From an uncultured Gemmatimonadales bacterium (GTDB lineage Bacteria > Gemmatimonadota > Gemmatimonadetes > Gemmatimonadales > GWC2-71-9), in contig CAVUAK010000002.1 in NCBI GenBank assembly GCA_963739455.1, positions 432,641 to 496,640 on the forward strand: 64,000 nt of DNA, read 5' to 3'. The notes under the pieces are model-generated. The model did no database searches. It saw only the letters and a program-made list of their open reading frames with translations, and was not told the DNA's origin. Of the stretch, positions 2,055-15,394 are shown piece after piece (positions within the stretch are counted from its first letter, which is position 1; each line of letters starts with the position of its first letter). Position numbers and translations under genes: made by a program.

Positions 2055-3576
2055 TTAGGGAAGATAGGAAGGCGCAAGCTCCCCCGCTAGCACCCTCGAG
2101 GCCAACCGCTCCAGGTCGGGAGCCGGCGGCCGATCGGCGCCCAGCGGGGGAACGCCGCCAACCGGCGAGCGGACCTTCTCGTACAGCTCGATCACGCCCT
2201 TGCCTGGCTGGAGCGGCTTCAGGAACTCGAGTCCCTGGGCTCCGCACAGCAGCTCGGCACTGATGACATGGGCGGCATTGTCGGAGGATCCGGGACGCCT
2301 TGAAGGCCGCCGCCATGCCCATGGGGACGAAGTCCTCCTGGTTGGCGTCCGTCGGAATTGAGCCGATGCTGGCCGGCATGGCGATGCTCCGAGACTCGGC
2401 CACCAGGGACGCCGCGGTGATCTGGACCATCATGTAGCCGGATGAGAGCCCGGGGTTGTCCGTGAGGAAGGCCGGCAGTCCCTGCGACAGGTCGGGGTTC
2501 ACCAGGCGCTCCACCCGTCGCTCTGCGATTGCCTGCAGCGTCGTCAGGGCGATCGCCAGGAAATCGAGGGCCTGCGCCACCGGCTGTCCGTGGAAGTTCC
2601 CGCCGGAGAGCACCTCGCCCGACTCGAACACGAGCGGATTGTCGGTTGACGCATTGAGCTCGATGCGAGCCACTCCCTCGACGAAACGAATCGCATCGAG
2701 CACGGCCCCGAGCACCTGGGGCGAGCACCGCAGGCTGTAGGCGTCCTGCACCCGGTCGTCGTTCTCGCGATGTGACTCCCGGATCTCACTCGCCTCGAGC
2801 AGCTGCCGCAGGAGGGCGGCGGCCTCGATCTGCCCCGGGTGCGGACGGTTGTCGTGGATGCGGGGATCGAGCGGCACCGGTGTGCCGCGAAGGGCCTCCA
2901 GCGACATCGCCGCGGCGCCGACGGCGGTGCGCCAGACCAGGTCGGCATCGTGCACCAGGAGCGCGAGCATCGCGGTCTGTGCCTGCGTGCCGTTGATGAA
3001 GGAGATGCCTTCCTTCGGCGCAAAGCTGAATGGCTCGAGTCCCGCGGCCCGGAGCGCGGCACCGGCGGCGCGCCCATCCGACAGGGATCCCTCACCCATC
3101 AGGACCAGTGCGATATGGCTCAGTGGCGCGAGATCGCCGCTGGCACCGACGCTTCCCTGCTCCGGCACCGCCGGCACCAGTCCGCTGTTGATGAGTGCCA
3201 CCAGCGCGTCCACCAGCTCAGGTCGTACACCACTGGTGGGGCGGATCAGTACGTTGGCCCTGAGCACCATCACCCCGCGCACGACGTCGGCCGGCATCAG
3301 CGCCCCGACGCCGGCAGCATGGCTCCGAATCAGGTTCACCTGCAGCTGCTCCAGCTGGTCAGGCGCGATGCGGACGTTGGCGAGCTTCCCGAACCCGGTG
3401 TTGATGCCGTAGATCGTGGCACCCGATGCGACCGCCGCATTCACCCGCCCCCGGCTCGCGGCAAGTGCCGCACGCGCTTCGGGAGCTACTGCGATCGAGG
3501 TGGCGGGATCGCGCGCAACCCGGACCACATCGGCGATGGTGAGGGACGAGCCGTCGAGAATGAGGTTCTGGGGCAT
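2055..3576 (-). CDS. hutH: Histidine ammonia-lyase (frameshifts near the C-terminus, ~2280 and downstream)
   Basis: YGINTGFG, LIRSH, GSVGASGDLAPLSH (MIO-forming ASG), DRVQDAYSLRC, GGNFHGQP and ANQEDFVPMG motifs. Likely ATG at 3576; probable true stop TAA at 2055-2057 after frame correction. Confidence 0.9.
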
Positions 3577-3606
3577 GGGCCAAAATAACCGGGCGGACAT
3601 GAGGCG

Positions 3607-3670
3607 ACAGGCACGGCAGGAGATGAACCTGGTACCTGCTGCCTGACTTCCTGCCGCCGACTTCCTGCCC
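3607..3670. repeat. Short tandem repeats with an imperfect hairpin in the intergenic region
   Basis: cctgctgcctgactt / cctgccgccgactt / cctgccc in tandem, partly complementary to upstream aggcacggcagg. Confidence 0.45.
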
Positions 3671-3671
3671 G

Positions 3672-4802
3672 CTAGCGCATTCGAATCAGCTGCGGATTTC
3701 CCGGATCCGTCTGGAACGACCAGTCGATGATCGTGAATTCAGTGCCCACGTGCGTCGCTCGCACGGCACCGTAGCGCAGGAAGCCATCCGGCGACCCGGT
3801 GATCTGGATGACGTAGCCGTATCCCGGCAGCAGCTGGACAGGGGTGTGACTGTACCCGCCCACCGGTGCGATGTCGATGCTCGTCAGGTCGGGAATCGGA
3901 CCGCCAGAATAGAGCGCCACCGAGGCCTCCGCGCGCACCGGCGTCAGCCAGAGCTGGCCGGCCCCATCGCGCTCGATGGAAAAATCGGCGCTGGGTGATG
4001 CGCCCGCGAGTACGAGGCCCAGTTCACTGTCTTGTGCCAGGCCATCGTTGTTCTGGTCGCGCCAGAAGCGGAAGCCGCTCTGCGCCGCGTCGAACTGTGA
4101 GGAGGTGATCGCAATGTTGCGCGCGTCAGGACGCGGGGTGTCGTCCACAATCGGCGACCAGAGGCTCTCGAAGCCCTCGATGGTCACCGCCGACACACCG
4201 AAACAGCGTGGGAAGCCATTGGGCAACGCCCCGGCAATGAACTCCGGGGCCACCGTGGTACCCTCGAGCACCCAGCCGGTATCGAGGCAGAGACCGGTGT
4301 CGAGGTTGAACGGGGTGCTGAATATGCGATAGGTCCGGAAGCCGGCGGGGTCAGCCTCAAAAGGATTGTCCGTCCACGCCAGCGCCACCGCGCCGTTGAG
4401 GCTCGTACTGAACAGCTGGTTGACGCGTGGCAGGGTCAGCCGTTCGTCTACCGTCACGACATTGCTGCCCACCGACTCGAATCCGTCGAAGTCCACGGCC
4501 GTGACGTAGTACTGCAATTCCGGCACACCCTGGTCGTGGAAGCTGTTCGACGTGGTCGTGCCCCGCAGCACGAAGGCCTGTGACGTGTTGCTGCGCGAGT
4601 AGATGTTCCACACGTTGACGCTTCCATCGGTCACCTGGTCCCACTCCAACAGTGTCGCCACCGGGATCGTGGCCGGCCCGCCCGAGGTCACGTCATAGAA
4701 CAGGTTCGTGGGAGGTGGCAACGTTCCCCCTCCCGGCGCCACGATGTTGTTCGTGGTGCAGGCCGCGAGCAGCAGGAGCGCGAGCGAGAGCCGGCGGGGC
4801 AT
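3672..4802 (-). CDS. Hypothetical lipoprotein with fibronectin-III-like beta-sandwich repeats
   Basis: Start MPRRLSLALLLLAAC (lipobox LAAC) with GGAG RBS; two repeats ending YYVTAVDFDGFES and CFGVSAVTIEGFES resemble FnIII C-terminal strands. Confidence 0.7.
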   Translation of the reverse strand: MPRRLSLALLLLAACTTNNIVAPGGGTLPPPTNLFYDVTSGGPATIPVATLLEWDQVTDGSVNVWNIYSRSNTSQAFVLRGTTTSNSFHDQGVPELQYYVTAVDFDGFESVGSNVVTVDERLTLPRVNQLFSTSLNGAVALAWTDNPFEADPAGFRTYRIFSTPFNLDTGLCLDTGWVLEGTTVAPEFIAGALPNGFPRCFGVSAVTIEGFESLWSPIVDDTPRPDARNIAITSSQFDAAQSGFRFWRDQNNDGLAQDSELGLVLAGASPSADFSIERDGAGQLWLTPVRAEASVALYSGGPIPDLTSIDIAPVGGYSHTPVQLLPGYGYVIQITGSPDGFLRYGAVRATHVGTEFTIIDWSFQTDPGNPQLIRMR

Positions 4803-4839
4803 GGCGTTGTTTCTCCGAGAGGTGATGCAAGGAGCGCTG

Positions 4840-4855
4840 AGCAGGGAGTATGCCA
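4840..4855 (-). promoter_or_regulatory. Putative sigma54 (-24/-12) promoter
   Basis: Minus strand TGGCATA-CTCC-CTGCT: GG-N10-GC spacing, about 38 bp upstream of the lipoprotein ATG. Confidence 0.55.
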
Positions 4856-4967
4856 ATGAGGGTGTGAAGACGTGAGGGCGTGAAGACGTGAGGCCTATCT
4901 TACGCGATACCAATGCCTTTCAGCATTCGGTCACCTCACCTCCTCACGTCTTCACGTCCTCACGTCT
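4856..4967. repeat. Inverted arrays of tandem octamers (GTGARGRC-like) around a ~36-bp spacer
   Basis: Left 4856-4895 atgagggt|gtgaagac|gtgagggc|gtgaagac|gtgaggcc; right 4932-4967 cacctcac|ctcctcac|gtcttcac|gtcctcac|gtct, the reverse complement. Confidence 0.8.
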
Positions 4968-4996
4968 CCGAAGGGCGTCGCCGCCCAAGGACAGCG

Positions 4997-7900
4997 TCAC
5001 TGCTCGAACGTCGTCTGCTGGTAGTCATAGCGCAGCTCGGGCAGATCCGTCAGGAACACCGAGAAGAAGAACGCGAAGTTGCCGTTGGCATTCCGGACGA
5101 ACCGGAATGACGCCCGCCATTCGTGAAGCTCGCGCGCCAGCGACACCGTCTGCGACTCGAAGCGCCCCTGGCTGAAGTTGTACTGCGCCTGCCACGACAC
5201 AGCCCAGAACTGCGTGGGCGTGAATTGCAGCGAGTAGTTCAGGGAGACCTGGTCCTGCGGCGTGACGAGCGGCGCAGGCAGCGGCCGGAATCGCTGTACC
5301 GTGACGGCGAAATTCGAGGTGAAGCCACGCTGCCCCCCCGCCCCCGTGTTGCTGTAGCTCGACGCCGGCCGGATCGGCCGGCTCCCCTGGTTCTGCAGGT
5401 AGTTGTCCCGGTTCGGGTCGTTCAGGGTGCTCTGCAGTGCGCCCTGCGGCTGCCCACCTACTCCCTTCATGGAACCGCCGAACAGTGAGCGCAGTGTCGC
5501 GCTCGAGATGCCGAAGGTCGCATTCAGGTTGCTGAGGAAGGGCGAGAACTGCGAGGTATCCACGCCGGCCAGGCCACGCCACAGGTCGATCCCGAACCCC
5601 AGCGTGAACCCCGGCAGCAGGTCGCTGAGCACCGAGTTCGTGATCTGCTGCGTGACCCAGCCGCTGCCGCCGGGCTCTCCCGCCCGCTGGAAGTTGTAGC
5701 TGAATGGGCTCGTCTGGATGCTCAACAGGCGAAACCGCCTCGTCTGGGTGCCGAGGGTATCGTCCGGCGCGGGCTTGACCTTCACCTCGAAATTCTGGTT
5801 GAGTGCGAGGGTGAGGAGGTTCTCCGGCTGGCTGCGGAGCAGTTGTTCCTGGCCGGGCAGGGCGATCGCCGCGGCATACGCCGCCGGCACGGTCGCCGCC
5901 GGCGCAAACGACCATGTCAACAGCGGATTGATGCTGTGCCGCATGCGGCTCAGCCCGGGGATGAAGCCGACGTTGAAGAAGGCGAAGAATGTCGGCGTCA
6001 TCGACAGGCTGAACCGGGCGCGCTTTCCCTGCACCACCCAATCGCCGTCCGTGTTCCGGTTGCGGATGGCGAAGGGCCCCGACGTCACGTTCTGCACGCC
6101 GATGCTCGGCTGGATTTTCCAGGTGCCGTGCAACAGGAATGGCAGGTTGATGCCGGTGTCCCAGTCGAGCGAGCCCTGAAAGCGGTTGGCAAAATACCTG
6201 ACCGTCGTGTCCGCCGGGTTGTCCGGGTCGGGCCCGAATGTGGAGTCCCGTCCACTGACATTGGCGTCGGAGTAGCTCACCGAGTTCTGCCAGTTGAAGC
6301 TGCCGAAACGAAACGGCGTGGAAAGCCGGGCCGAGGTGGTGCGCGAATCGACCGTGAGTTGCACCGAGTCGATGGCGCCGCTCGGGGTCACGAACCTGAG
6401 GAACCCCCGAGGCTGGTCGAACGTCTGGTCCTGGCTGAAGGCAAACGCCGGCGACCAGGTCGAGTTGGAACCAAGGGCAATCGGCCTGGGCGTCACGTCG
6501 AGCGAAGGCAGTGTCTGCGTGACGCTCCCATTCGTGATGTCCTGCCGGCGGTTGCCGCCGATGTTGACGGCGCCCCAGCGGTACTGCTTGGTGAAGCGCA
6601 ACTGGCTGCTGATCTGCTGCGTGTTGATGAGTGGGTCGATGGCGTTGTTGTTGATGACCTGGGTATTGGTCGCATAGCCGATCGACAGGGCGATATTCGT
6701 CGTCAGGCTGAACTTCTGCGCATGGTCCCAGCGCAGCTGGAGGCTCGAGCCCCCGTCCGTCTCCCACTGCTTGTTGATGGCGAAGGTGCCACTGAGGAAC
6801 CGGTTGAGCCAGCGGTAATCGGTCTGGAAGCCGAGGGCCACGTAGCGTCCCGAGAACCAGTTGATCCGCCCGGTTATGTCCATGTAGTCGTTGGTGGCCC
6901 AGTAGTAGCCCAGGTTCGTGATCTGCCGGGAATAGCTGGGGGACGGGCGGATGATGTCGGAGAATCCGAAGGCCGGGATGAGCAGTCCCGAATGCCGCCC
7001 GGGCCGCAGGTCCTGGAAGATGAACGGGAGCCAGAGGACCGGAACGTCCTGGATGTAGAGCACGACCGGCCGTGCCACCAGCACGGTGTTCGACACCCAC
7101 TTGATCTCGCGCGCGCTGAAGTGGTAATGCGGAATCGGGAGGTCACAACTGGTGATGTCGCCGTGGCCGGCGAAGATACGGTTGTTGACCGAGTCCTTGG
7201 CCACATCACCGCGGAGGAACCAGGTGGTGCTGCCTTGCTGGAAGTTGGTGAGGGCGTCCTTGAAGACGCCGCGCTTTTCGCAGGTGTTGTACGCCATCTC
7301 CTCGCCCACCAGGACCTGGCCCTCGTTGAACACCCTCGGGTCACCGGTCGCCTCCAGCGAGCACTGCCGCTCCTCGTAGGTGATGTCCTCCGCCTCCATC
7401 GTCGTCCCCTCCCGCTCCGTCATCGCGTGACCGTTGAGCATGAGCTGACGCTGCTCCGCCAGGATGGCGGCGGAGTCGGCGCGGTACTTGGTGACGGTGT
7501 AGCCGGGGCGCTCGAGCAGGGACCGGTAAGCGGAATCCTCCGGCGCGAAGGATTGTGATGGAGCGGTGGGAAGGCCGAGCCGGCGGGCCTGCGCTGTGTC
7601 GAGCGCCTGGCCCGGCGCGCGGGCCGGGGGAGCGCGGGTCGTGTCCTGCCCCGCCACGCGTGCCGGCGGGACCGGGATACCCTGCCCCGCAGCCGGCGTC
7701 GCGAGTCCGCCCATCAGCAACGCAAGCAGGATCATCGGCAGCATGGCCGCCCGCTCGCTCCGGAGCCGGCGGCGCGCAATCAGGGCGGCGCCGGCCACCC
7801 CGATCTCGTACAGCAGGAGGAGCGGCGCCGTCATCATCAGCATCGAGAACACATCGGCGCCCGGCGACAGCACCGCACCGGCGATAAACGAGAGCACCAC

Positions 7901-8494
7901 CGCGTAGCGCCGGAAGCGATGGAGGTCGGCAGGGGTGACGACACCGAGCGCCGCCAGGATGATGATCACGAGCGGCAGCTCGAACGAGACGCCCAGCGCG
8001 AGGATGATCTGGAGCGCGAAGCCGAACCAGGCGTCGAACGTGATCATCGGCAGCAGGGAGTCGGCCTGGAAGCTGAAGAACACCTTCAGCGCCTGCGGCA
8101 CCACGAAGACGTATCCGAGCGTCGCACCGACCAGGAACAGCCCGAGACCCGCCACGAGCGCCGGCAGGATGACCTTGCGCTCGCGATCGTAGAGTGCCGG
8201 CGAGAGGAATGCCCACGCCTGGTAAATGAGCACCGGCGACGCGAGCAGGAGCCCGACGACGAACCCGAGCTTGAAGACGATCATGAGCGGCTCGGTTGGG
8301 CTCGTGAACACGAGCTTGCCACTCGGCAGGAAGGGCTCGATCGGGGCCTTGAGCAGCTGCACCAGGTTCAGCCGGTCCACCAGCCAGAGCCCGACGCCGA
8401 ACCCGACCACGACAGCCCCGAGGGCCCGCAGCAATCGCGTGCGGAGCTCCTCGAGGTGGTCGAGGAAGGGCATTTCGCCGCCGGGTGCCGTCAT
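4997..8494 (-). CDS. tatC: Fusion ORF: TatC (aa ~1-240) + internal signal-peptide-like segment + LptD-like LPS-assembly outer-membrane protein
   Basis: N-terminal TatC motifs (MPFLDHLEELRTRL, YQAWAFLSPALY, GVSFELP, SPGADVFSMLMMTAPLLLLYE). C-terminal LptD-like ITSCDLPIPHYHF, PVLWLPF, RHSGLLIP, NLGYYW and amphipathic beta strands. No stop in 1165 codons. Confidence 0.85.
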   Translation of the reverse strand: MTAPGGEMPFLDHLEELRTRLLRALGAVVVGFGVGLWLVDRLNLVQLLKAPIEPFLPSGKLVFTSPTEPLMIVFKLGFVVGLLLASPVLIYQAWAFLSPALYDRERKVILPALVAGLGLFLVGATLGYVFVVPQALKVFFSFQADSLLPMITFDAWFGFALQIILALGVSFELPLVIIILAALGVVTPADLHRFRRYAVVLSFIAGAVLSPGADVFSMLMMTAPLLLLYEIGVAGAALIARRRLRSERAAMLPMILLALLMGGLATPAAGQGIPVPPARVAGQDTTRAPPARAPGQALDTAQARRLGLPTAPSQSFAPEDSAYRSLLERPGYTVTKYRADSAAILAEQRQLMLNGHAMTEREGTTMEAEDITYEERQCSLEATGDPRVFNEGQVLVGEEMAYNTCEKRGVFKDALTNFQQGSTTWFLRGDVAKDSVNNRIFAGHGDITSCDLPIPHYHFSAREIKWVSNTVLVARPVVLYIQDVPVLWLPFIFQDLRPGRHSGLLIPAFGFSDIIRPSPSYSRQITNLGYYWATNDYMDITGRINWFSGRYVALGFQTDYRWLNRFLSGTFAINKQWETDGGSSLQLRWDHAQKFSLTTNIALSIGYATNTQVINNNAIDPLINTQQISSQLRFTKQYRWGAVNIGGNRRQDITNGSVTQTLPSLDVTPRPIALGSNSTWSPAFAFSQDQTFDQPRGFLRFVTPSGAIDSVQLTVDSRTTSARLSTPFRFGSFNWQNSVSYSDANVSGRDSTFGPDPDNPADTTVRYFANRFQGSLDWDTGINLPFLLHGTWKIQPSIGVQNVTSGPFAIRNRNTDGDWVVQGKRARFSLSMTPTFFAFFNVGFIPGLSRMRHSINPLLTWSFAPAATVPAAYAAAIALPGQEQLLRSQPENLLTLALNQNFEVKVKPAPDDTLGTQTRRFRLLSIQTSPFSYNFQRAGEPGGSGWVTQQITNSVLSDLLPGFTLGFGIDLWRGLAGVDTSQFSPFLSNLNATFGISSATLRSLFGGSMKGVGGQPQGALQSTLNDPNRDNYLQNQGSRPIRPASSYSNTGAGGQRGFTSNFAVTVQRFRPLPAPLVTPQDQVSLNYSLQFTPTQFWAVSWQAQYNFSQGRFESQTVSLARELHEWRASFRFVRNANGNFAFFFSVFLTDLPELRYDYQQTTFEQ

Positions 8495-8510
8495 GCTGGT
8501 CCGGCCAGGC

Positions 8511-9296
8511 TCAGCGCCCGATGGCCTTCAACCGGTCGCGGGCAAGGGCCGCCTCGTCCGACTTGGGATAACTCTTCAGGAGCTGGTTGTACGCGTCACG
8601 CGCCTCGGCCTTGTCACCATGACGCTCCGCCAGCAGGCCCAGTCCGTACAGCGCCGCGGGTGCCCGCGAGGACGTGGGATACTCCTTCACCACCTTGCGG
8701 TAGTACGCGGCCGCGGAATCGGGATTCTCCGACGAGAAACTCTGCCCCACGAAGTAGAGCGCATCGGGAACGAGTTCGCTCTTCGGATAGGCCTGCAGCA
8801 TTTCGCGGAGGCCGGCCCGGCCGGTCGCCGCGCTGCCCCGACGCAGCTGGGACAGCGACGCATCGTACATCTGCTGCGCCGAGGCGGAAGCGGCCGGTAC
8901 CGCGCCAGCCGAATCGGCCGGGGCGCCAGGCCCGGCCGGCATGGGACCGCCACCAACCGACTCACCGCGCGCCTCCAGCTGCGAGCGCAATTCGGTGAGG
9001 CGACGCTGGCTTTGCCCCGTCAGCTCCTGCAGCTGCAGCAACTGCTGCTGCACCGCCAGCATGTCGTTCGCCGTGCTCCCCTTCATTTCGTTGAGCGAAC
9101 GCCGCGTGGCCGCCAGGGAGTCCATCATCTGCTGCTGCAGTACCAGGATCTGGCGCAGCTGTGCCGCGCTCGCCGAGTCGGCGCGCCGGCTATCGGCGCG
9201 CAGTACGTTGACCTGGGTCTCTACCTGCTGCACCTGCGCCGGCGTCGCACACGCAGCGACACCGGCGAGGCACGCAGCAGCGATGGCTCGTCTCAC
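8511..9296 (-). CDS. cpoB: Tol-Pal system protein CpoB/YbgF (coiled coil + TPR), lipobox present
   Basis: Downstream of pal; coiled coil, then TPRs (YPKSELVPDALYFVGQ, APAALYGLG); N-terminal GVAAC. Confidence 0.85.
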   Translation of the reverse strand: MRRAIAAACLAGVAACATPAQVQQVETQVNVLRADSRRADSASAAQLRQILVLQQQMMDSLAATRRSLNEMKGSTANDMLAVQQQLLQLQELTGQSQRRLTELRSQLEARGESVGGGPMPAGPGAPADSAGAVPAASASAQQMYDASLSQLRRGSAATGRAGLREMLQAYPKSELVPDALYFVGQSFSSENPDSAAAYYRKVVKEYPTSSRAPAALYGLGLLAERHGDKAEARDAYNQLLKSYPKSDEAALARDRLKAIGR

Positions 9297-9866
9297 TGGG
9301 GCGAGACGAGGTTCGCCCCGCCGGCCGTGACCGTGAACTGGTCATTCCGGTTCTGGGCCCACGCCGCCTCGGACTGGCCCGTGGCGATCGGACGCTCCGA
9401 CCCATAGGAGACGGTCTCGATGCGGCTGCCATCGATGCCCTTGCCCACCAGGTACTGCTTCGCCGCCAGCGCACGACGGTTGCCAAGGGCGAGGTTGTAC
9501 TCGGCGGAGCCGCGCTCATCGGCGTTGCCGGCCACCTGGATCTTGACGCGCCGGGTTGGCCGCGAGAATCGCCGCCTTGCGGTCGAGGTTCGCCTTGTCG
9601 CCCGGCTGGATGTCCGACTTGTCGTAGTCGAAGTGGATCAGCGCCGTCAGGTCAGCGTTCAGGGCCCGCGTACGCTCGGCCGCTGCGCGTGCCGCCGCTG
9701 CTGCCGCATCGTCGGTCGGCGCCGGAGCCGGCGCCGGGGCGACGGGAGCCGGGGCCGGTGCCGCGGCCGGCTTCGTTTCCGGCGCCGGTGCCTCGGGTGG
9801 CTTCTTGCCACCACAGGCGGCGACGAAAGCGAAAGCACAGACCGCAAGCAGCGAGGAACGTGTCAT
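9293..9866 (-). CDS. pal: Peptidoglycan-associated lipoprotein Pal (frameshift ~9550)
   Basis: FVAAC lipobox and IHFDYDKS in ORF 9516..9866; GNADERGSAEYNLALGNRRA and SYGSERP..NR in ORF 9293..9535. Confidence 0.9.
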
Positions 9867-9893
9867 GAGACTTCTCCTGTTGTAAGTGAACTG

Positions 9894-11180
9894 CTACGGG
9901 AGCCGGCGCGACCACGCGGGGAGCCGGGATGCCCCGCCCGTCGTGATCGCACGCACGCGCCCGGTTTCGATATCGATGACCCACACCTGCCGTTGTCCGG
10001 TGCGATCCGAGACAAACGCGATGTGCTTGCCGTCGGGTGCCCAGGTCGGGTCCTCGTTCCGGCCCGACGACGACAGCTGCTTGAGCCGGCGTCCCGCAAT
10101 GTCGAGCACGAAGATCTGCGGCCCGCCTGACACTTCGCGATGGAACGCGAGCGACACCCCATCCGGGGACCATTCCGGCGCATTGGAACTGCCGGTGACG
10201 CCGAAGTCGAACGGCACGAGCAATTCGGCGTTGGTGCCGTTCGCCTCCATGACATAGATCTGCGGCGGGCCGGCACGCGTCGAGACGAACGCGATGCGCT
10301 GGCCGTCGGGCGCATAGGTCGGTGAAAGGTTGTCCGCGAAGCGACCCGTGGTCAACCGCTGGACACAGCACATGTCTGAAACGTTGGCAACCTGGATGTT
10401 GGTGCCCTGCTCACCAGCCTGCGCGTAGGCGAGGAACTGGCCGTTGGGCGAGAACATCGGCGTGATGTTGAGCGCCGATTCCGTGCCCGGTACCACCTGC
10501 GGTGCCCCGCCCGAGAGACGCTGGATCAGGATCGGACCCTTGCCCTCGCCGAGCCGTGTATAGGCGATGCGATCGGCCGTCGGCGACCAGGCGGGCGACA
10601 GCGCCGTCTCGCCGGCCGGCGTAAGGGCGGTGATGGCGGCCCCGTCGAAATCCATGTACATGATCCGGCCGCCACTCACGTACGCGATTCGCGTCGCGGC
10701 AACGCCGGGCGTGCCGGTCACCCAGCGCACGACCTCGTCACTGGCCCGGTGCACCTGCATGCGGAGCGCCGGATCGGAGGCGTCGGCGAAGCGGGTCTCC
10801 ATGGTATTGAGCACCTTGCCGCCGGCGACGTCGTGCAGCCGTATCGTGGTCTGGGTGCCCGCCTGCGACAGCTCGAGGGCGAAGGCAGCACCGAAATTCT
10901 TGTAGAGCGCGTAGTTGAGCGGGCCCGATGGGCCCGCGGGTGCAGTCGCGCCGTCCGGCTGGATGATGGTCTCGAAGCGGTCGCTGAAATCGAGGTCGCG
11001 CTTCAGGATCGCGCGCACGGAATCGAGGCCCGCACCGGGAACGATGACCAGCGATGGCCTGTTACCCGGGTCGTAGCGCAGCGTCAGCCGCACTCCGCCC
11101 GCCTGCGGCACCGAGTCCTGCGCAGCAGCCGGCACGGCAACACCGGCCATCGCCGCGAGGAGTACCAGCGCGCGGCGCAT
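9894..11180 (-). CDS. tolB: TolB, periplasmic beta-propeller
   Basis: Signal peptide, DLDFSDRF, TRIAYV, repeated PD40 motifs (SPAWSP, PEWSPDG, PTWAPDG); operon context. Confidence 0.9.
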   Translation of the reverse strand: MRRALVLLAAMAGVAVPAAAQDSVPQAGGVRLTLRYDPGNRPSLVIVPGAGLDSVRAILKRDLDFSDRFETIIQPDGATAPAGPSGPLNYALYKNFGAAFALELSQAGTQTTIRLHDVAGGKVLNTMETRFADASDPALRMQVHRASDEVVRWVTGTPGVAATRIAYVSGGRIMYMDFDGAAITALTPAGETALSPAWSPTADRIAYTRLGEGKGPILIQRLSGGAPQVVPGTESALNITPMFSPNGQFLAYAQAGEQGTNIQVANVSDMCCVQRLTTGRFADNLSPTYAPDGQRIAFVSTRAGPPQIYVMEANGTNAELLVPFDFGVTGSSNAPEWSPDGVSLAFHREVSGGPQIFVLDIAGRRLKQLSSSGRNEDPTWAPDGKHIAFVSDRTGQRQVWVIDIETGRVRAITTGGASRLPAWSRRLP

Positions 11181-11905
11181 CACTGGCGCGGCTCGAAGAC
11201 GAATGTCACGGGGAGGACGTTGGCATCCCACCCGTCAGGCAGCGGGCCGAATGCCTTCCCGTTCCCTGCCGCCTCGATCGCACCCTGCGCCTCGAGGTCG
11301 AAACTGAAGTTGCCTGAACGCTTGAGGAATCGAATGTCAGCCACCGAACCGTCCTTGAGGATCAGGAACGCGACCTCGGCGCGAAGCCGGTTGTTGGGCG
11401 CGTTCCATCGCCGGAGCACTTCGTTCATGATGTTCCGGAGATACTCCGGATAGGGAAACTCGATCCCGGGAATCTTGATGTTCGCGACGTCAGTGCCGGT
11501 GCCAGGCGTCTCGCCGGGCAACGGCTGCGCCTCACTCTTCGTGACCGGCGTCTTCTCCACCGGCTTCTCCGACGCCTGCACCGGCTTTGTGGGCGTCGGC
11601 GCCGGTTCCGCCTTGGCCTTCGGCTTCACCGCTTCAGCCTTCGTCGGCTTCGCGGGCGCCGGGGCCGGCGCCTCAGCCGGCGGCGCAGGTTCGGGCGGTC
11701 GGGTGACGGCCTCTGGAGCGGCACGACGTGCCGTCGTCGGCAGCGGTGCCGCCACCAGCTCGACGGCATACACCGGCGGGCCGATGACCGGCTTCGGGAT
11801 CACGACAAAGAAGAGCAGGACGGCCGCCACGTGAACGACCAGCGACCCGGTCATGCCGACCGTGGCCGAGGGTCCGTCAACGGCGTACGCGCCCCTGCCC
11901 TTCAC
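11180..11905 (-). CDS. tolA: TolA/TonB-family energy transducer
   Basis: TM helix with SLVVH (SHLS-like), Pro/Ala/Lys-rich linker, TonB_2-like C-terminus (SGNFSFDLEAQGAIE..FGPLP). Confidence 0.8.
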   Translation of the reverse strand: MKGRGAYAVDGPSATVGMTGSLVVHVAAVLLFFVVIPKPVIGPPVYAVELVAAPLPTTARRAAPEAVTRPPEPAPPAEAPAPAPAKPTKAEAVKPKAKAEPAPTPTKPVQASEKPVEKTPVTKSEAQPLPGETPGTGTDVANIKIPGIEFPYPEYLRNIMNEVLRRWNAPNNRLRAEVAFLILKDGSVADIRFLKRSGNFSFDLEAQGAIEAAGNGKAFGPLPDGWDANVLPVTFVFEPRQ

Positions 11906-12324
11906 TTCGATTCCTCATCCTCGGCCACGAGGCCCAGGTTGCGCACGCCGGAGTTCCGGATGATGGCCACAACGCGCACGACGTCGCCGTATGAGGCCCG
12001 GTTGTCGGCGCGGAGATAGACGGCTTCGGGCTTCCGCGTCGCCACGATGGAGCGGAAGGTTGCCCGGAAGTCGCGGTAGCTCACCGGCGTCTCATCGAGG
12101 AAGATCTTTCCCGTCCGGTCGAGCGACACCACGATGCCCTGCTTGGCGTTCATCGGCTTCGCAGCGGCCTTTGGCAGGTCCACATCGACGCCGCCCTGCA
12201 TGATCGGCGCGGCGATCATGAAGATGATCAGCAGCACGAAGGCAACGTCCACCAGCGACGTGACGTTGACCTCGGCATTCAGGGCCAGGTCGTCGTCGCC
12301 GCGGAACCCGCTCAGCGCCCCCAC
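11902..12324 (-). CDS. tolR: TolR/ExbD family protein
   Basis: EVNVTSLVDVAFVLLIIFMI, VDLPKA, LRAD..YG.V motifs. Confidence 0.9.
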   Translation of the reverse strand: MGALSGFRGDDDLALNAEVNVTSLVDVAFVLLIIFMIAAPIMQGGVDVDLPKAAAKPMNAKQGIVVSLDRTGKIFLDETPVSYRDFRATFRSIVATRKPEAVYLRADNRASYGDVVRVVAIIRNSGVRNLGLVAEDEESK

Positions 12325-12325
12325 G

Positions 12326-13033
12326 TCAGACCATCCCCTCGCGTGCCATGGTGCCGATCAACTCGGCGGCAAATCCCTCGAGCTCACCCGCCAGCATGCG
12401 AACCTTGTTGACGTAGAGGTTGTACGCGATGACGGCAGGGATGGCCGCGGCCAGTCCCGCGACGGTGGCAATGAGCGCCTCGGCCACACCGGGCGCCACT
12501 GCGCTGATGTTGCCGGACCCCTTCGACGAGATGCCGATGAAGGCATCCATGACGCCGAGCACCGTGCCCATCAGCCCCATGAGCGGCCCCACCGCACCCA
12601 CCGTGGCGAGCCACGGGATGTAGCGACTGAGCATGTCCTTCTCGGCCGAGACTTCCTTCATGAGGACCAGCTTGAGCGACTCGAGCTGCGTGGACGTCAG
12701 CGGCGTGCGCGCCACTTCCTCCTTGAGTGCACCCGGCCGCAGTTCGCTGTAGAAGTTGATCGCCTCGCGGAACAGCCGGTTGTACGGCGACGGCGGCTGC
12801 TTCATGGCGGCGTGATAGCCTTCCTGCAGGCGCGTGGTGCGCTCCAGTTCGGCGAAGAACTTTCCGCCCTGACGGTGCAGGCGGCGGAATTGCCACCACT
12901 TGAGCACGATGATGAACCAGGCGATCAGCGAGAAGACCAGCAGGATGGCGAGCACCACCTTGGTCTCGACACTCGAGATGAGCAGGAGCTCGAGCGGAGT
13001 GGTTGGCAGGGCGCCGCCGACCTGGAGCATCAT
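12326..13033 (-). CDS. tolQ: TolQ/ExbB (MotA family) proton channel
   Basis: LATVGAVGPLMGLMGTVLG, VAPGVAEALIATVAGLAAAIPAVIAYN. Confidence 0.9.
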   Translation of the reverse strand: MMLQVGGALPTTPLELLLISSVETKVVLAILLVFSLIAWFIIVLKWWQFRRLHRQGGKFFAELERTTRLQEGYHAAMKQPPSPYNRLFREAINFYSELRPGALKEEVARTPLTSTQLESLKLVLMKEVSAEKDMLSRYIPWLATVGAVGPLMGLMGTVLGVMDAFIGISSKGSGNISAVAPGVAEALIATVAGLAAAIPAVIAYNLYVNKVRMLAGELEGFAAELIGTMAREGMV

Positions 13034-13980
13034 GCGTTCTCCTTCTTGAACCAGTCGATGAGCTGGGGCAATCCATTCTCAAAACTGTATTCCGGGGTCC
13101 AGCCGAGCTGCGACCCCGCCTTCCGCACGTCCAGCGCGCTCCGCTGCAACTCACCCGGGCGCGTGGGCGCAAACTCCAGCACGGGGGTCACCCCCATGAC
13201 CTTCCCGACCGTCGCCGCCAGTTCAAGCACTGAGGTTTCCCGCGAGGTGGCGATGTTGAAGGCCCGCGCTTCATGCACACCAGCGGGCGGGAGGGGATTC
13301 GTACCGGCGAGCAGGTTGGCCCGGGCGACATCGCGGACGAACACGTAGTCGCGCGTCTGGGTACCGTCGCCGAAGATCGTCAGCGGACGCTTCTCGAGCA
13401 GGCGCGACACGAAGATCGAGACGACGCCCGCTTCCGACTTGGGATCCTGCCGCGGACCGAAGACGTTGGAGTAGCGCATCGCGACGGCATCGAATCCGTT
13501 GAGTGCGCCGAGCATGCGGACGTAGTGCTCGCCCGCAAGCTTGCTCGCGCCATAGGGAGAGATGGGACAGTTGGGCGCGGTCTCCGGCGTAGGGATCTCG
13601 AGTGGATCGCCGTACACGGTACCACCGCTCGAGGCGAACACTACCCGGCCGACTCCGCCTGCTCCCGCACCCTCGAGGAGGTTCACGAAGCCGACGACGT
13701 TGATGGATGCATCGAAAGCGGGCTGGTCGACCGACACACGAACATCGATTTGCGCAGCATGATGGCAGAGCACGTTGAACCGGCCCTCGGCCAGCAGCTT
13801 CCGGGCTTCGGGCGAGCGAATGTCAGCCTGAACCAGCGTCGCCCTGGCCGGCACGTTGTGCGCGTGACCGCGGGAGAGGTCATCCAGTACGACCACCTCC
13901 CAGCCCGCCCCGAGATAAGCCTCGGCGATATGGGATCCGATGAATCCCGCTCCCCCTGTCACCAGCACCCGTCCGCCCAT
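13030..13980 (-). CDS. NAD-dependent epimerase/dehydratase (GalE-like extended SDR)
   Basis: VLVTGGAGFIGSH, YGASK, RYSNVFGPRQ, IFGDGTQTRDYVFV. Confidence 0.85.
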   Translation of the reverse strand: MGGRVLVTGGAGFIGSHIAEAYLGAGWEVVVLDDLSRGHAHNVPARATLVQADIRSPEARKLLAEGRFNVLCHHAAQIDVRVSVDQPAFDASINVVGFVNLLEGAGAGGVGRVVFASSGGTVYGDPLEIPTPETAPNCPISPYGASKLAGEHYVRMLGALNGFDAVAMRYSNVFGPRQDPKSEAGVVSIFVSRLLEKRPLTIFGDGTQTRDYVFVRDVARANLLAGTNPLPPAGVHEARAFNIATSRETSVLELAATVGKVMGVTPVLEFAPTRPGELQRSALDVRKAGSQLGWTPEYSFENGLPQLIDWFKKENA

Positions 13981-14112
13981 TTGAGGATCCTTCCCCGGGT
14001 TGAAAGTGCCACGGTCTGCCGCCCTGAACAGGGCGTAAACCATGATCGCCCCGCAATATAGACGGGCGAGCCGCGAGCGGGAGCGCGCTGGGTGACCATC
14101 CTCACAAAGACA

Positions 14113-14143
14113 TGAGCGGCGCCCCGGGAAGGGGCGCCGCTCA
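14113..14143 (-). terminator. Rho-independent terminator after the LysM gene
   Basis: 13-bp perfect stem tgagcggcgcccc/ggggcgccgctca, followed on the minus strand by tgtctttgt. Confidence 0.7.
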
Positions 14144-14172
14144 GGCCGAATTCGTGTGTGCCGCGGGAGGTG

Positions 14173-15394
14173 CTATTGCGGCAGCTTGGCCACCTGAACG
14201 GCCGGCGTACCCATCGGGAAGGTCGCGAACTTGACGTTGAGCAGCAGCCCGGTGGCGCTGTGGTCACGCACGTTGACGATCTGCATGACGGCCATCGTCT
14301 CGGTCGTCAGCACGGTGCCGTTGTTGGCGATGCCGCCCGACGCCCGCTGCACTTCCCACATGTCGCCCAGGGCGACGCCATCGAGCTTGCCCTTGTCGAT
14401 GAAGAGGTAGCCCTGCGGCAGCTTGAGGTACTCGACCCGCGGCCAGCCAATGACCCGCGCCGAGATGCCATCGGTGATGGGCACCGCGCGCGCCTTGGAG
14501 CTGCCCGGGAACTTCTCCAGTGGCAGCAGCCACTGGCCCGGGTAGATGCCCCAGAAGATCTGGGTGATGGTCATGATCGGCCGGCCATCGTCGATGCGCT
14601 TCACCACGCCGACGCCGGTGGGGAGCACCATGAAGCCGAAGCCGTTGACCGGAGGCCCCTTCTCGAGCGTCAGCAGCGTGTCACCGATCTCGTATGAAGC
14701 ACCCTTGGGAGGTGAGATGGCGAGCTCGGTCGCGAGCTTGGCCACGCCGAAGTTGCTGATCGAGGCGATCATCGGTGATGCCGTGCGACCCACGATGCGG
14801 CCGTAGGGAAGATCCTGGCCCTCAGTGAGGAAGCCGCCGGAATAGAACTCATCGCGCCGGATGGCCCGGTAGTTCTTCTCGGAGTAGGCCTTCACCGTTG
14901 CGCGGGCCGCCTGCGACATCTCACCCATCTGGGGGAACAGGGGAGCATTCGGATCGTAGTCGTCCGAGGTCTCCTCGATGGTTTCCTTGAAGTTCGGGTC
15001 CTCGACCGCGTCAACCTTGGCGCCCGGAGCCGCCGGAGCCGCCGGATCCAGCCTGTGCCACCGCGGACGGTGGAGGCGGCGTATCCTCGGCCGGCACCGA
15101 CTTCACGCCGTCGCCGGCAGCCAGGCGCAGGTTCTCGCCCGGGTAGATCCAGTGCGGATCCTCCACCACGTCGGTGTTGAGGCGGTAGATCTCGGGCCAC
15201 AAGAGCGGGTCACCGAGATACGACTGTGCGAGCGACCAGAGCGTGTCTCCCGGCCGCACGGTGTGCGTCTGGGGCGTTGCCGGTGCCTGCGCGAGCAAGG
15301 CAGAGGGCAGCGCCAGCAGCACACCGATGGCGACGTGCCAGCGGCGGGGTGACATGCGGTCAGTCCGCGACGCAACAGGATCGAGGTGCGGCAT
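14173..15394 (-). CDS. LysM peptidoglycan-binding protein, TsaP-like architecture (frameshift ~15010-15040)
   Basis: Signal peptide; [38 protein letters not shown] LysM; C-terminal beta domain with [26 protein letters not shown] before the ATG at 15394. Confidence 0.75.

Follow-up and report, generated by a model that had tools for sequence, protein, structure and literature searches.

The window analyzed here, a 64,000-nucleotide stretch of contig CAVUAK010000002.1 from an uncultured Gemmatimonadales bacterium, contains an open reading frame (ORF) in which the inner-membrane protein TatC of the Tat translocase is joined to LptD, the outer-membrane barrel of the lipopolysaccharide (LPS) insertase. 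This TatC-LptD fusion is real, and is neither a chance join nor an assembly error. The conservation of the linker between the two halves makes it likely that Sec inserts the TatC part, that the linker acts as an internal signal and that signal peptidase I frees LptD by a cut between G270 and Q271. The ORF runs as a single stop-free frame of 1165 amino acids (aa) from 8494 to 4997 on the minus strand, and its parts are as follows:

4997..8494, minus strand: tatC-lptD fused ORF, 1165 aa (ORF list with Pfam and NCBIfam matches)
7775..8494, minus strand: TatC moiety, aa 1-240 (Pfam TatC at aa 12-224; alignment to PDB 9DZZ chain A)
7751..7774, minus strand: basic patch RRRLRSER, aa 241-248 (RR after the sixth transmembrane helix, TM6, in fused and unfused TatCs)
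7700..7750, minus strand: hydrophobic (h-) region, aa 249-265 (best 10-residue hydropathy 2.75)
7682..7699, minus strand: c-region with the predicted signal peptidase I site A268-A269-G270/Q271 (site pattern in 49/49 fused loci; Q271 invariant)
5000..7684, minus strand: predicted mature LptD, aa 271-1165 (Pfam LptD_2; structure model; Foldseek)

Pfam recovers TatC at aa 12-224 (E 1e-61) and LptD_2 at aa 473-936 (E 2.7e-33), and these matches, together with that to TIGR00945 and the LptD fold described below, bear out the sequence-only reading of this ORF as a complete TatC followed by an LptD-like protein. In the TatC half the PF00902 match (208.8 bits) spans model positions 1-208, thereby covering the full six-helix core, and the tatC model TIGR00945 scores 202.1 bits against a cut-off of 132.7. 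This half can be aligned over its full length with solved TatC structures; H13, F96, E105, E172, D214 and E230 correspond to H12, F94, E103, E170, D211 and E227 of 9DZZ chain A, which from its sequence we take to be E. coli TatC. Among 49 fused proteins H13, F96, E105 and E230 are invariant and D214 is at least 90% conserved. According to the available text of a 2026 review, the key residues by which TatC binds the twin arginines are F94 and E103 in E. coli numbering (PMC13673990), and the equivalents of both, F96 and E105, are retained here. The genome encodes seven candidate proteins with a Tat motif, and the only TatA/B/E-family gene found in it (82 aa, L053:1405-1653; G000:C2, about 430.5 kb) lies 2 kb beyond the window, a few genes downstream of the fusion and in the same orientation. 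The TatC half thus looks functional by its sequence, and with the TatA-family protein it probably forms a minimal TatA-TatC system.

The LptD half matches PF19838 (LptD_2) with 115.8 bits against a cut-off of 22.5, the proteobacterial NCBIfam LptD models match the fused ORF weakly and far under their cut-offs, and PF04453 has no match anywhere in the genome. A sequence search of the PDB with this half returned nothing at E 0.1, and a fold search was therefore required. In the predicted structure (predicted local distance difference test, pLDDT, 83) the putative mature protein begins with a short disordered stretch directly after Q271 (pLDDT <50 at aa 270-292 in a model of TatC plus linker) and continues as an all-beta region that matches full-length LptD structures. 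Every Foldseek match listed down to rank 37 is an LptD (best E-value 8.7e-24), with a TM-score of about 0.5 and identities of 9-12%; the fold agrees with that of LptD, an N-terminal beta domain plus a large barrel. Judged by this model the LptD half looks functional, and a single LptE-family gene elsewhere in the genome encodes a candidate partner.

The sequence-only reading had warned that an indel might have created the fusion, and several genes neighboring it in the window do carry frameshifts. None of these lies in tatC-lptD, however, and the same fusion is found in over 100 independent genomes. Our family sample comprised 141 genomes of the uncultured Gemmatimonadales family to which the source belongs, 139 of them with a TatC match; the frame reaches at least 1000 aa in 109, 500-999 aa in 8 and less than 500 aa in 22. 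The figure of 109, which includes the unpublished genomes G098 and G213 (107 of 137 without them), is a lower bound, because some of the shorter frames are fusions that end at the end of a contig (G187, G033, G066, G503). The fusion is thus the majority state among the sampled genomes of this family. The suggested search for proteins with both domains across Gemmatimonadota was equally positive, with TatC and LptD together in 118 of the 119 other homologues among the matches listed, proteins of 640-2039 aa only being admitted. Across the phylum, where 150 of 406 matches were listed (the unpublished G213 and G133 among them), a frame of at least 1100 aa occurs in 42 of 52 listed matches from the same family, 2 of 31 from a second family and none of 67 from ten others. 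The 80 named records of relatives stem from 79 Gemmatimonadota metagenome-assembled genomes, mostly Gemmatimonadales, and one genome labeled Bacillota; 67 are full-length fusions, 5 pass the junction and meet a stop later, and 8 run off their contig. The record labeled Bacillota (L122) carries the fusion with 55% identity, and is probably a mis-binned Gemmatimonadota contig.

Independently assembled contigs from two public sequencing runs, belonging to related organisms other than the source strain, also cross the junction without a gap: that from run X2 differs from 7485-8367 by 78 substitutions and no gaps, and that from run X4 aligns ungapped to 7680-7861. A third run shows an in-frame insertion of 6 nucleotides (nt) downstream of the junction. 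None of the public runs contained half of the sampled words, and no RNA run was among those listed. Given the frames, domains and ungapped contigs of the relatives, an indel that erased a tatC stop is rejected for the family, and the chance that the fusion in the source genome is an assembly artefact is negligible. The named database entries among the homologues carry the label TatC (in one case hypothetical), and in genomes with the fusion LptD is consequently hidden.

The junction reads A240, R241-R243, up to E247 and R248, then a hydrophobic run A249-A265, T266-P-A-A-G270 and Q271 (nt 7777-7682), in agreement with its earlier description as a basic n-region, a hydrophobic h-region and a small-x-small site; the predicted cut falls at nt 7685/7684, and a GGAG lies 13 nt 5' of the M251 ATG. 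The linkers of 49 fused loci from the source's family (36 genera, chosen non-randomly) were compared with 28 loci in which the two genes are adjacent but separate, one of the latter, with an apparent frameshift, being dropped from the comparison of signals. In all 49 fused loci a [AGSVLTC]-x-[AG]-Q pattern lies 7-28 residues past the start of the h-region, with Ala (43) or Gly (6) at position -1 and Ala (27), Leu (17), Ser (2), Val (2) or Thr (1) at -3, and by our own heuristics each of them combines a basic n-region, an h-region and small residues at -3 and -1. R242 and Q271 are the only conserved positions of the linker, the latter invariant, and between 35 and 53 residues separate the TM6 Glu from the Gln; such drift around two retained residues fits a signal peptide and not a packed structural helix. 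The best 10-residue hydropathy of the h-region (mean 2.84 in the fused loci) resembles that of 26 stand-alone LptD signals (2.69), in 25 of which a Gln likewise follows the h-region. Comparison of these loci shows the putative signal in the linker to be conserved and descended from LptD's own former signal. The proposal that the linker serves as a Sec and signal peptidase I signal is strengthened by the retention of site pattern, h-region and basic patch in every fused locus, and mature LptD probably starts at Q271, much as had been anticipated.

The Gln at the predicted site recalls a wider tendency of this genome, in which 34% of 136 heuristic signal peptides have a Gln after A-x-A, as against 3.5% in ORF bodies. 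Bacteroidetes signal peptides that follow the Q-rule similarly place a Gln right after the signal peptidase I site, with a mean frequency of 71% (PMC5837995) compared to the rough 34% in the source genome; the available text of that study contains no mention of Gemmatimonadota. A partial Q-rule in Gemmatimonadota is possible. For glutaminyl cyclase, PF05096 was not found in the genome, and none of its 15 Peptidase_M28 matches was identified as a cyclase.

The arginines of the linker belong to the ordinary positive-inside flank of TatC and now serve as n-region of the putative signal. Two adjacent arginines occur 10-12 residues past the TM6 Glu, at the end of the helix, in 45 of 49 fused loci, but also after TM6 in 32 of 36 unfused TatCs. 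This bears on the earlier speculation that RRR is a twin-arginine signal in cis, by which LptD would be handed over from Sec to a Tat machine built from its own TatC. Besides the frequency of RR, the intact RR-binding residues of TatC and a Lys or Arg near the site in 16 of 49 loci could be taken in its favor. However, neither [ST]RRx[FLIV] nor RRxF[LI] occurs in any of the 49 loci, four lack RR altogether, and the h-region hydropathy of 2.84 is close to that of the genome's Sec candidates (2.74) and well above that of its seven Tat-motif candidates (2.08). Moreover, outer-membrane barrels cross the inner membrane unfolded, while Tat carries folded proteins. As described in the available text on dual Sec-Tat proteins, a tethered Tat signal requires a loop of at least about 8 residues ahead of the RR, together with a helix of low hydrophobicity (PMC5449189). 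The actinobacterial Rieske proteins of this type do resemble the present linker in having a signal-like helix after Sec-inserted helices, with arginines ahead of it; yet TatC-LptD, whose RR is flush with the end of TM6, has neither the spacing of about 8 residues nor the weakly hydrophobic helix nor the folded cofactor domain (PMC5449189, in the same text). With motif, position and hydrophobicity all contrary, an in-cis twin-arginine signal is rejected, and Tat export of LptD appears highly improbable.

Alternatively, LptD might be made mainly from a start codon within the linker, with the read-through chain as a by-product. The source genome has M251 and M254, an in-frame ATG, GTG or TTG precedes the h-region in 15 of 49 fused loci, and a Met is kept in the h-region of 2 of the 8 fusions known from the second family. 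Against this, such a codon is missing from 34 of the 49 loci and a Shine-Dalgarno-like word occurs in only 2, the product from M251 would be without a basic n-region, and TatC would still be made only as a fusion. A conserved internal start is rejected on these counts, as the earlier dismissal of M251 and M254 had suggested, and we regard this route to LptD as very unlikely.

If the linker were left uncleaved, or were cleaved slowly, it might persist as a seventh helix by which LptD in the outer membrane stays tied to TatC, bridging both membranes. The uncharged linker runs of 13-32 residues, with a hydropathy near that of TM6, and the disordered stretch after Q271 would suit such a tether. 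It is nonetheless unlikely, given that the -3/-1/+1 pattern persists in 49 of 49 loci while the remaining linker drifts, that the linker helix has no conserved face, and that many relatives manage with tatC and lptD separate or even far apart. A similarly small chance attaches to a variant in which cutting is late or partial, so that BAM (the beta-barrel assembly machinery) folds LptD while it is anchored to TatC and the Tat translocase and the LPS insertase are tied across the periplasm; if true, late cutting would bring the insertion of LPS to Tat sites, with the fused gene closing a tol-pal-type operon. The chain could also be cut by another protease of the rhomboid or site-2 type, enzymes that do cut single helices, but the conserved site obeys the signal peptidase I rule and resembles the ordinary signal sites of the genome, which leaves little probability for this option.

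Certain observations do weigh against an internal signal cut by signal peptidase I, or against the evidence for it. The site pattern, present in all 49 fused loci, is found on average in 12.1 and at most in 22 of the same windows after shuffling (1000 trials); this contrast is overstated, since the sequences had been inspected before the pattern was written and the loci share ancestry. The best 19-residue hydropathy of the linkers has a median of 1.77 versus 1.95 for TM6, so a lasting helix is conceivable in many loci, and in 16 of 49 the last 7 residues ahead of the site include a Lys or Arg. An AlphaFold model of TatC plus linker has one straight helix at aa 215-262 with no hairpin back onto TatC, although this is uninformative on topology because the model lacks a membrane. 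As had been advised, other tatC and lptD copies were sought, and one TatC match, one LptD_2 match and no second copy were found, but the genome is 84% complete and further copies could be missing from it. It also has one match each for the TatA family, LptE and signal peptidase I (Peptidase_S26). When this genome was searched heuristically for further genes in which a multi-helix protein runs on into an internal signal with a terminal Gln, only tatC-lptD was returned.

The phyletic pattern of the fusion suggests a labile history. In other Gemmatimonadota with separate tatC and lptD (LptD_2) genes the order after the tol-pal-type cluster, the proteins and the small-x-small-Gln signal of LptD are the same; there, however, each gene keeps its own boundary, the tatC stop and the lptD start mostly sharing 4 nt (the first in-frame lptD start overlaps the tatC stop in this way in 15 of 27 separate-gene loci with a candidate start), whereas the fusion runs through as a single ORF in which a second start is not conserved. 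In trees of TatC (a quick tree), LptD (FastTree) and both combined, the fusions of the second family fall inside that family, apart from those of the source's own, and in the combined tree a third family, with split genes, is sister to the latter. Of the 55 genomes in the second-family genus concerned that have a TatC match, 8 show a frame of at least 1000 aa, the unpublished G458 and G473 counting among the unfused. All eight junctions (L045, L143, L184-L189) have a long acidic TatC tail before the h-region, followed by a small residue and Gln. Within the source's family split forms branch from among fused ones, and individual genera (g5, g8, g11, g13, g14) contain fused and split members alike. 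Monophyly of all fused forms is rejected by an approximately unbiased (AU) test (p 5e-34), which by itself does not separate gains from reversions. From these sequences the fusion was probably gained at least twice independently, and it has probably reverted several times.

One of the eight second-family genomes (G047) has an extra, unfused tatC besides the fusion, and in G018 and G023 lptD follows cpoB directly, tatC being missing between them and located elsewhere. The tatC genes of G018, G023, G106, G203 and G255 group with the TatC of another family (the second family for G018 and G023), and the tatC native to the family was likely replaced in these genomes by a transferred copy (L031, L033, L034, L036, L135-L137). 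The lability of the fusion suggests near-neutral merging of coupled genes rather than selection for a fixed stoichiometry, and a nearly neutral arrangement could account for at least two gains and several losses.

The following sequence of events may be proposed. The comparison of relatives shows that tatC and lptD merged in frame from adjacent genes whose stop and start usually overlapped, and that in the source's family most of the TatC tail and the LptD start codon have been lost, the post-TM6 arginines of TatC replacing the n-region of LptD. During synthesis the TatC helices would target the ribosome to SecYEG/YidC, and six helices would be inserted such that the C-terminus stays cytoplasmic. 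Together, basic patch and h-region would then form an internal signal of N-in/C-out orientation that opens Sec export of unfolded LptD, and signal peptidase I would cut between G270 and Q271. Released LptD would follow the normal chaperone and BAM route and pair with LptE, while TatC would remain in the inner membrane with the spent signal as a C-terminal stub, possibly trimmed. The proposed export and cleavage steps lean on the established biology of Sec, signal peptidase I and BAM, and the fused arrangement as a whole would be close to neutral.

Such processing is reminiscent of the FbcH precursor of Bradyrhizobium japonicum (cytochrome b/c1), which is said to consist of a polytopic inner-membrane protein with an internal signal that signal peptidase splits into two proteins; in TatC-LptD one ORF and a putative internal signal are likewise present and two mature products are predicted, so the proposed mechanism would by analogy work as that precursor reportedly does. 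The two FbcH products are reportedly subunits of one inner-membrane complex, whereas TatC and LptD have unrelated functions and belong in different membranes, LptD being a BAM-dependent beta-barrel. The 14-helix TatC of haloarchaea is a natural TatC fusion too, but one of TatC with TatC that is kept whole (PMC13673990, available text); neither LptD nor any word beginning with Gemmatimon- occurs in the same text. Our search of the open-access literature found neither a TatC-LptD fusion nor a bacterial polyprotein that feeds both membranes, although a domain-architecture table in a subscription journal or a supplement could include the fusion.

In the textbook view, outer-membrane barrels have an N-terminal signal and are exported by Sec after translation. 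LptD, among the largest of them and normally essential, here apparently starts its export from a signal that lies 240 residues deep in a polytopic inner-membrane protein, and for that reason its export is probably co-translational. The fusion therefore offers a natural test of how far BAM substrates tolerate co-translational export, of how efficiently signal peptidase I works beside a six-helix protein and of how TatC functions with a spent signal on its tail, and it is, by its repeated gains and losses, a clear-cut example of translationally coupled genes turning into polyproteins.

The fusion is flanked by the following genes:

8511..9296, minus strand: cpoB/ybgF-like gene, last of the tol-pal-type cluster (TIGR02795 89.6 bits, cut-off 90.1)
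3672..4913, minus strand: downstream 413-aa ORF (no Pfam or NCBIfam match)

The upstream tol-pal-type cluster comprises genes for MotA_ExbB, ExbD, TonB_2 and PD40-propeller proteins, a frameshifted OmpA-domain gene and the CpoB-like gene, the last of which precedes tatC in all 77 named loci with enough flank. Among the 60 fused named loci with sufficient flank, 55 have the 413-aa ORF immediately behind the fusion, and its product, with a lipoprotein-like signal (LLLLAAC), is possibly a partner of the operon in the envelope. Scans of 3400-14200 for promoters and terminators gave results at chance level. A frameshift, probably an assembly indel, breaks the pal-like gene on the minus strand in two, 9866-9516 being lipoprotein-like and 9535-9293 containing the OmpA domain. 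An aromatic amino acid lyase gene (3600-2038) and a TPR gene (2010-1057) are also apparently out of frame near their ends.

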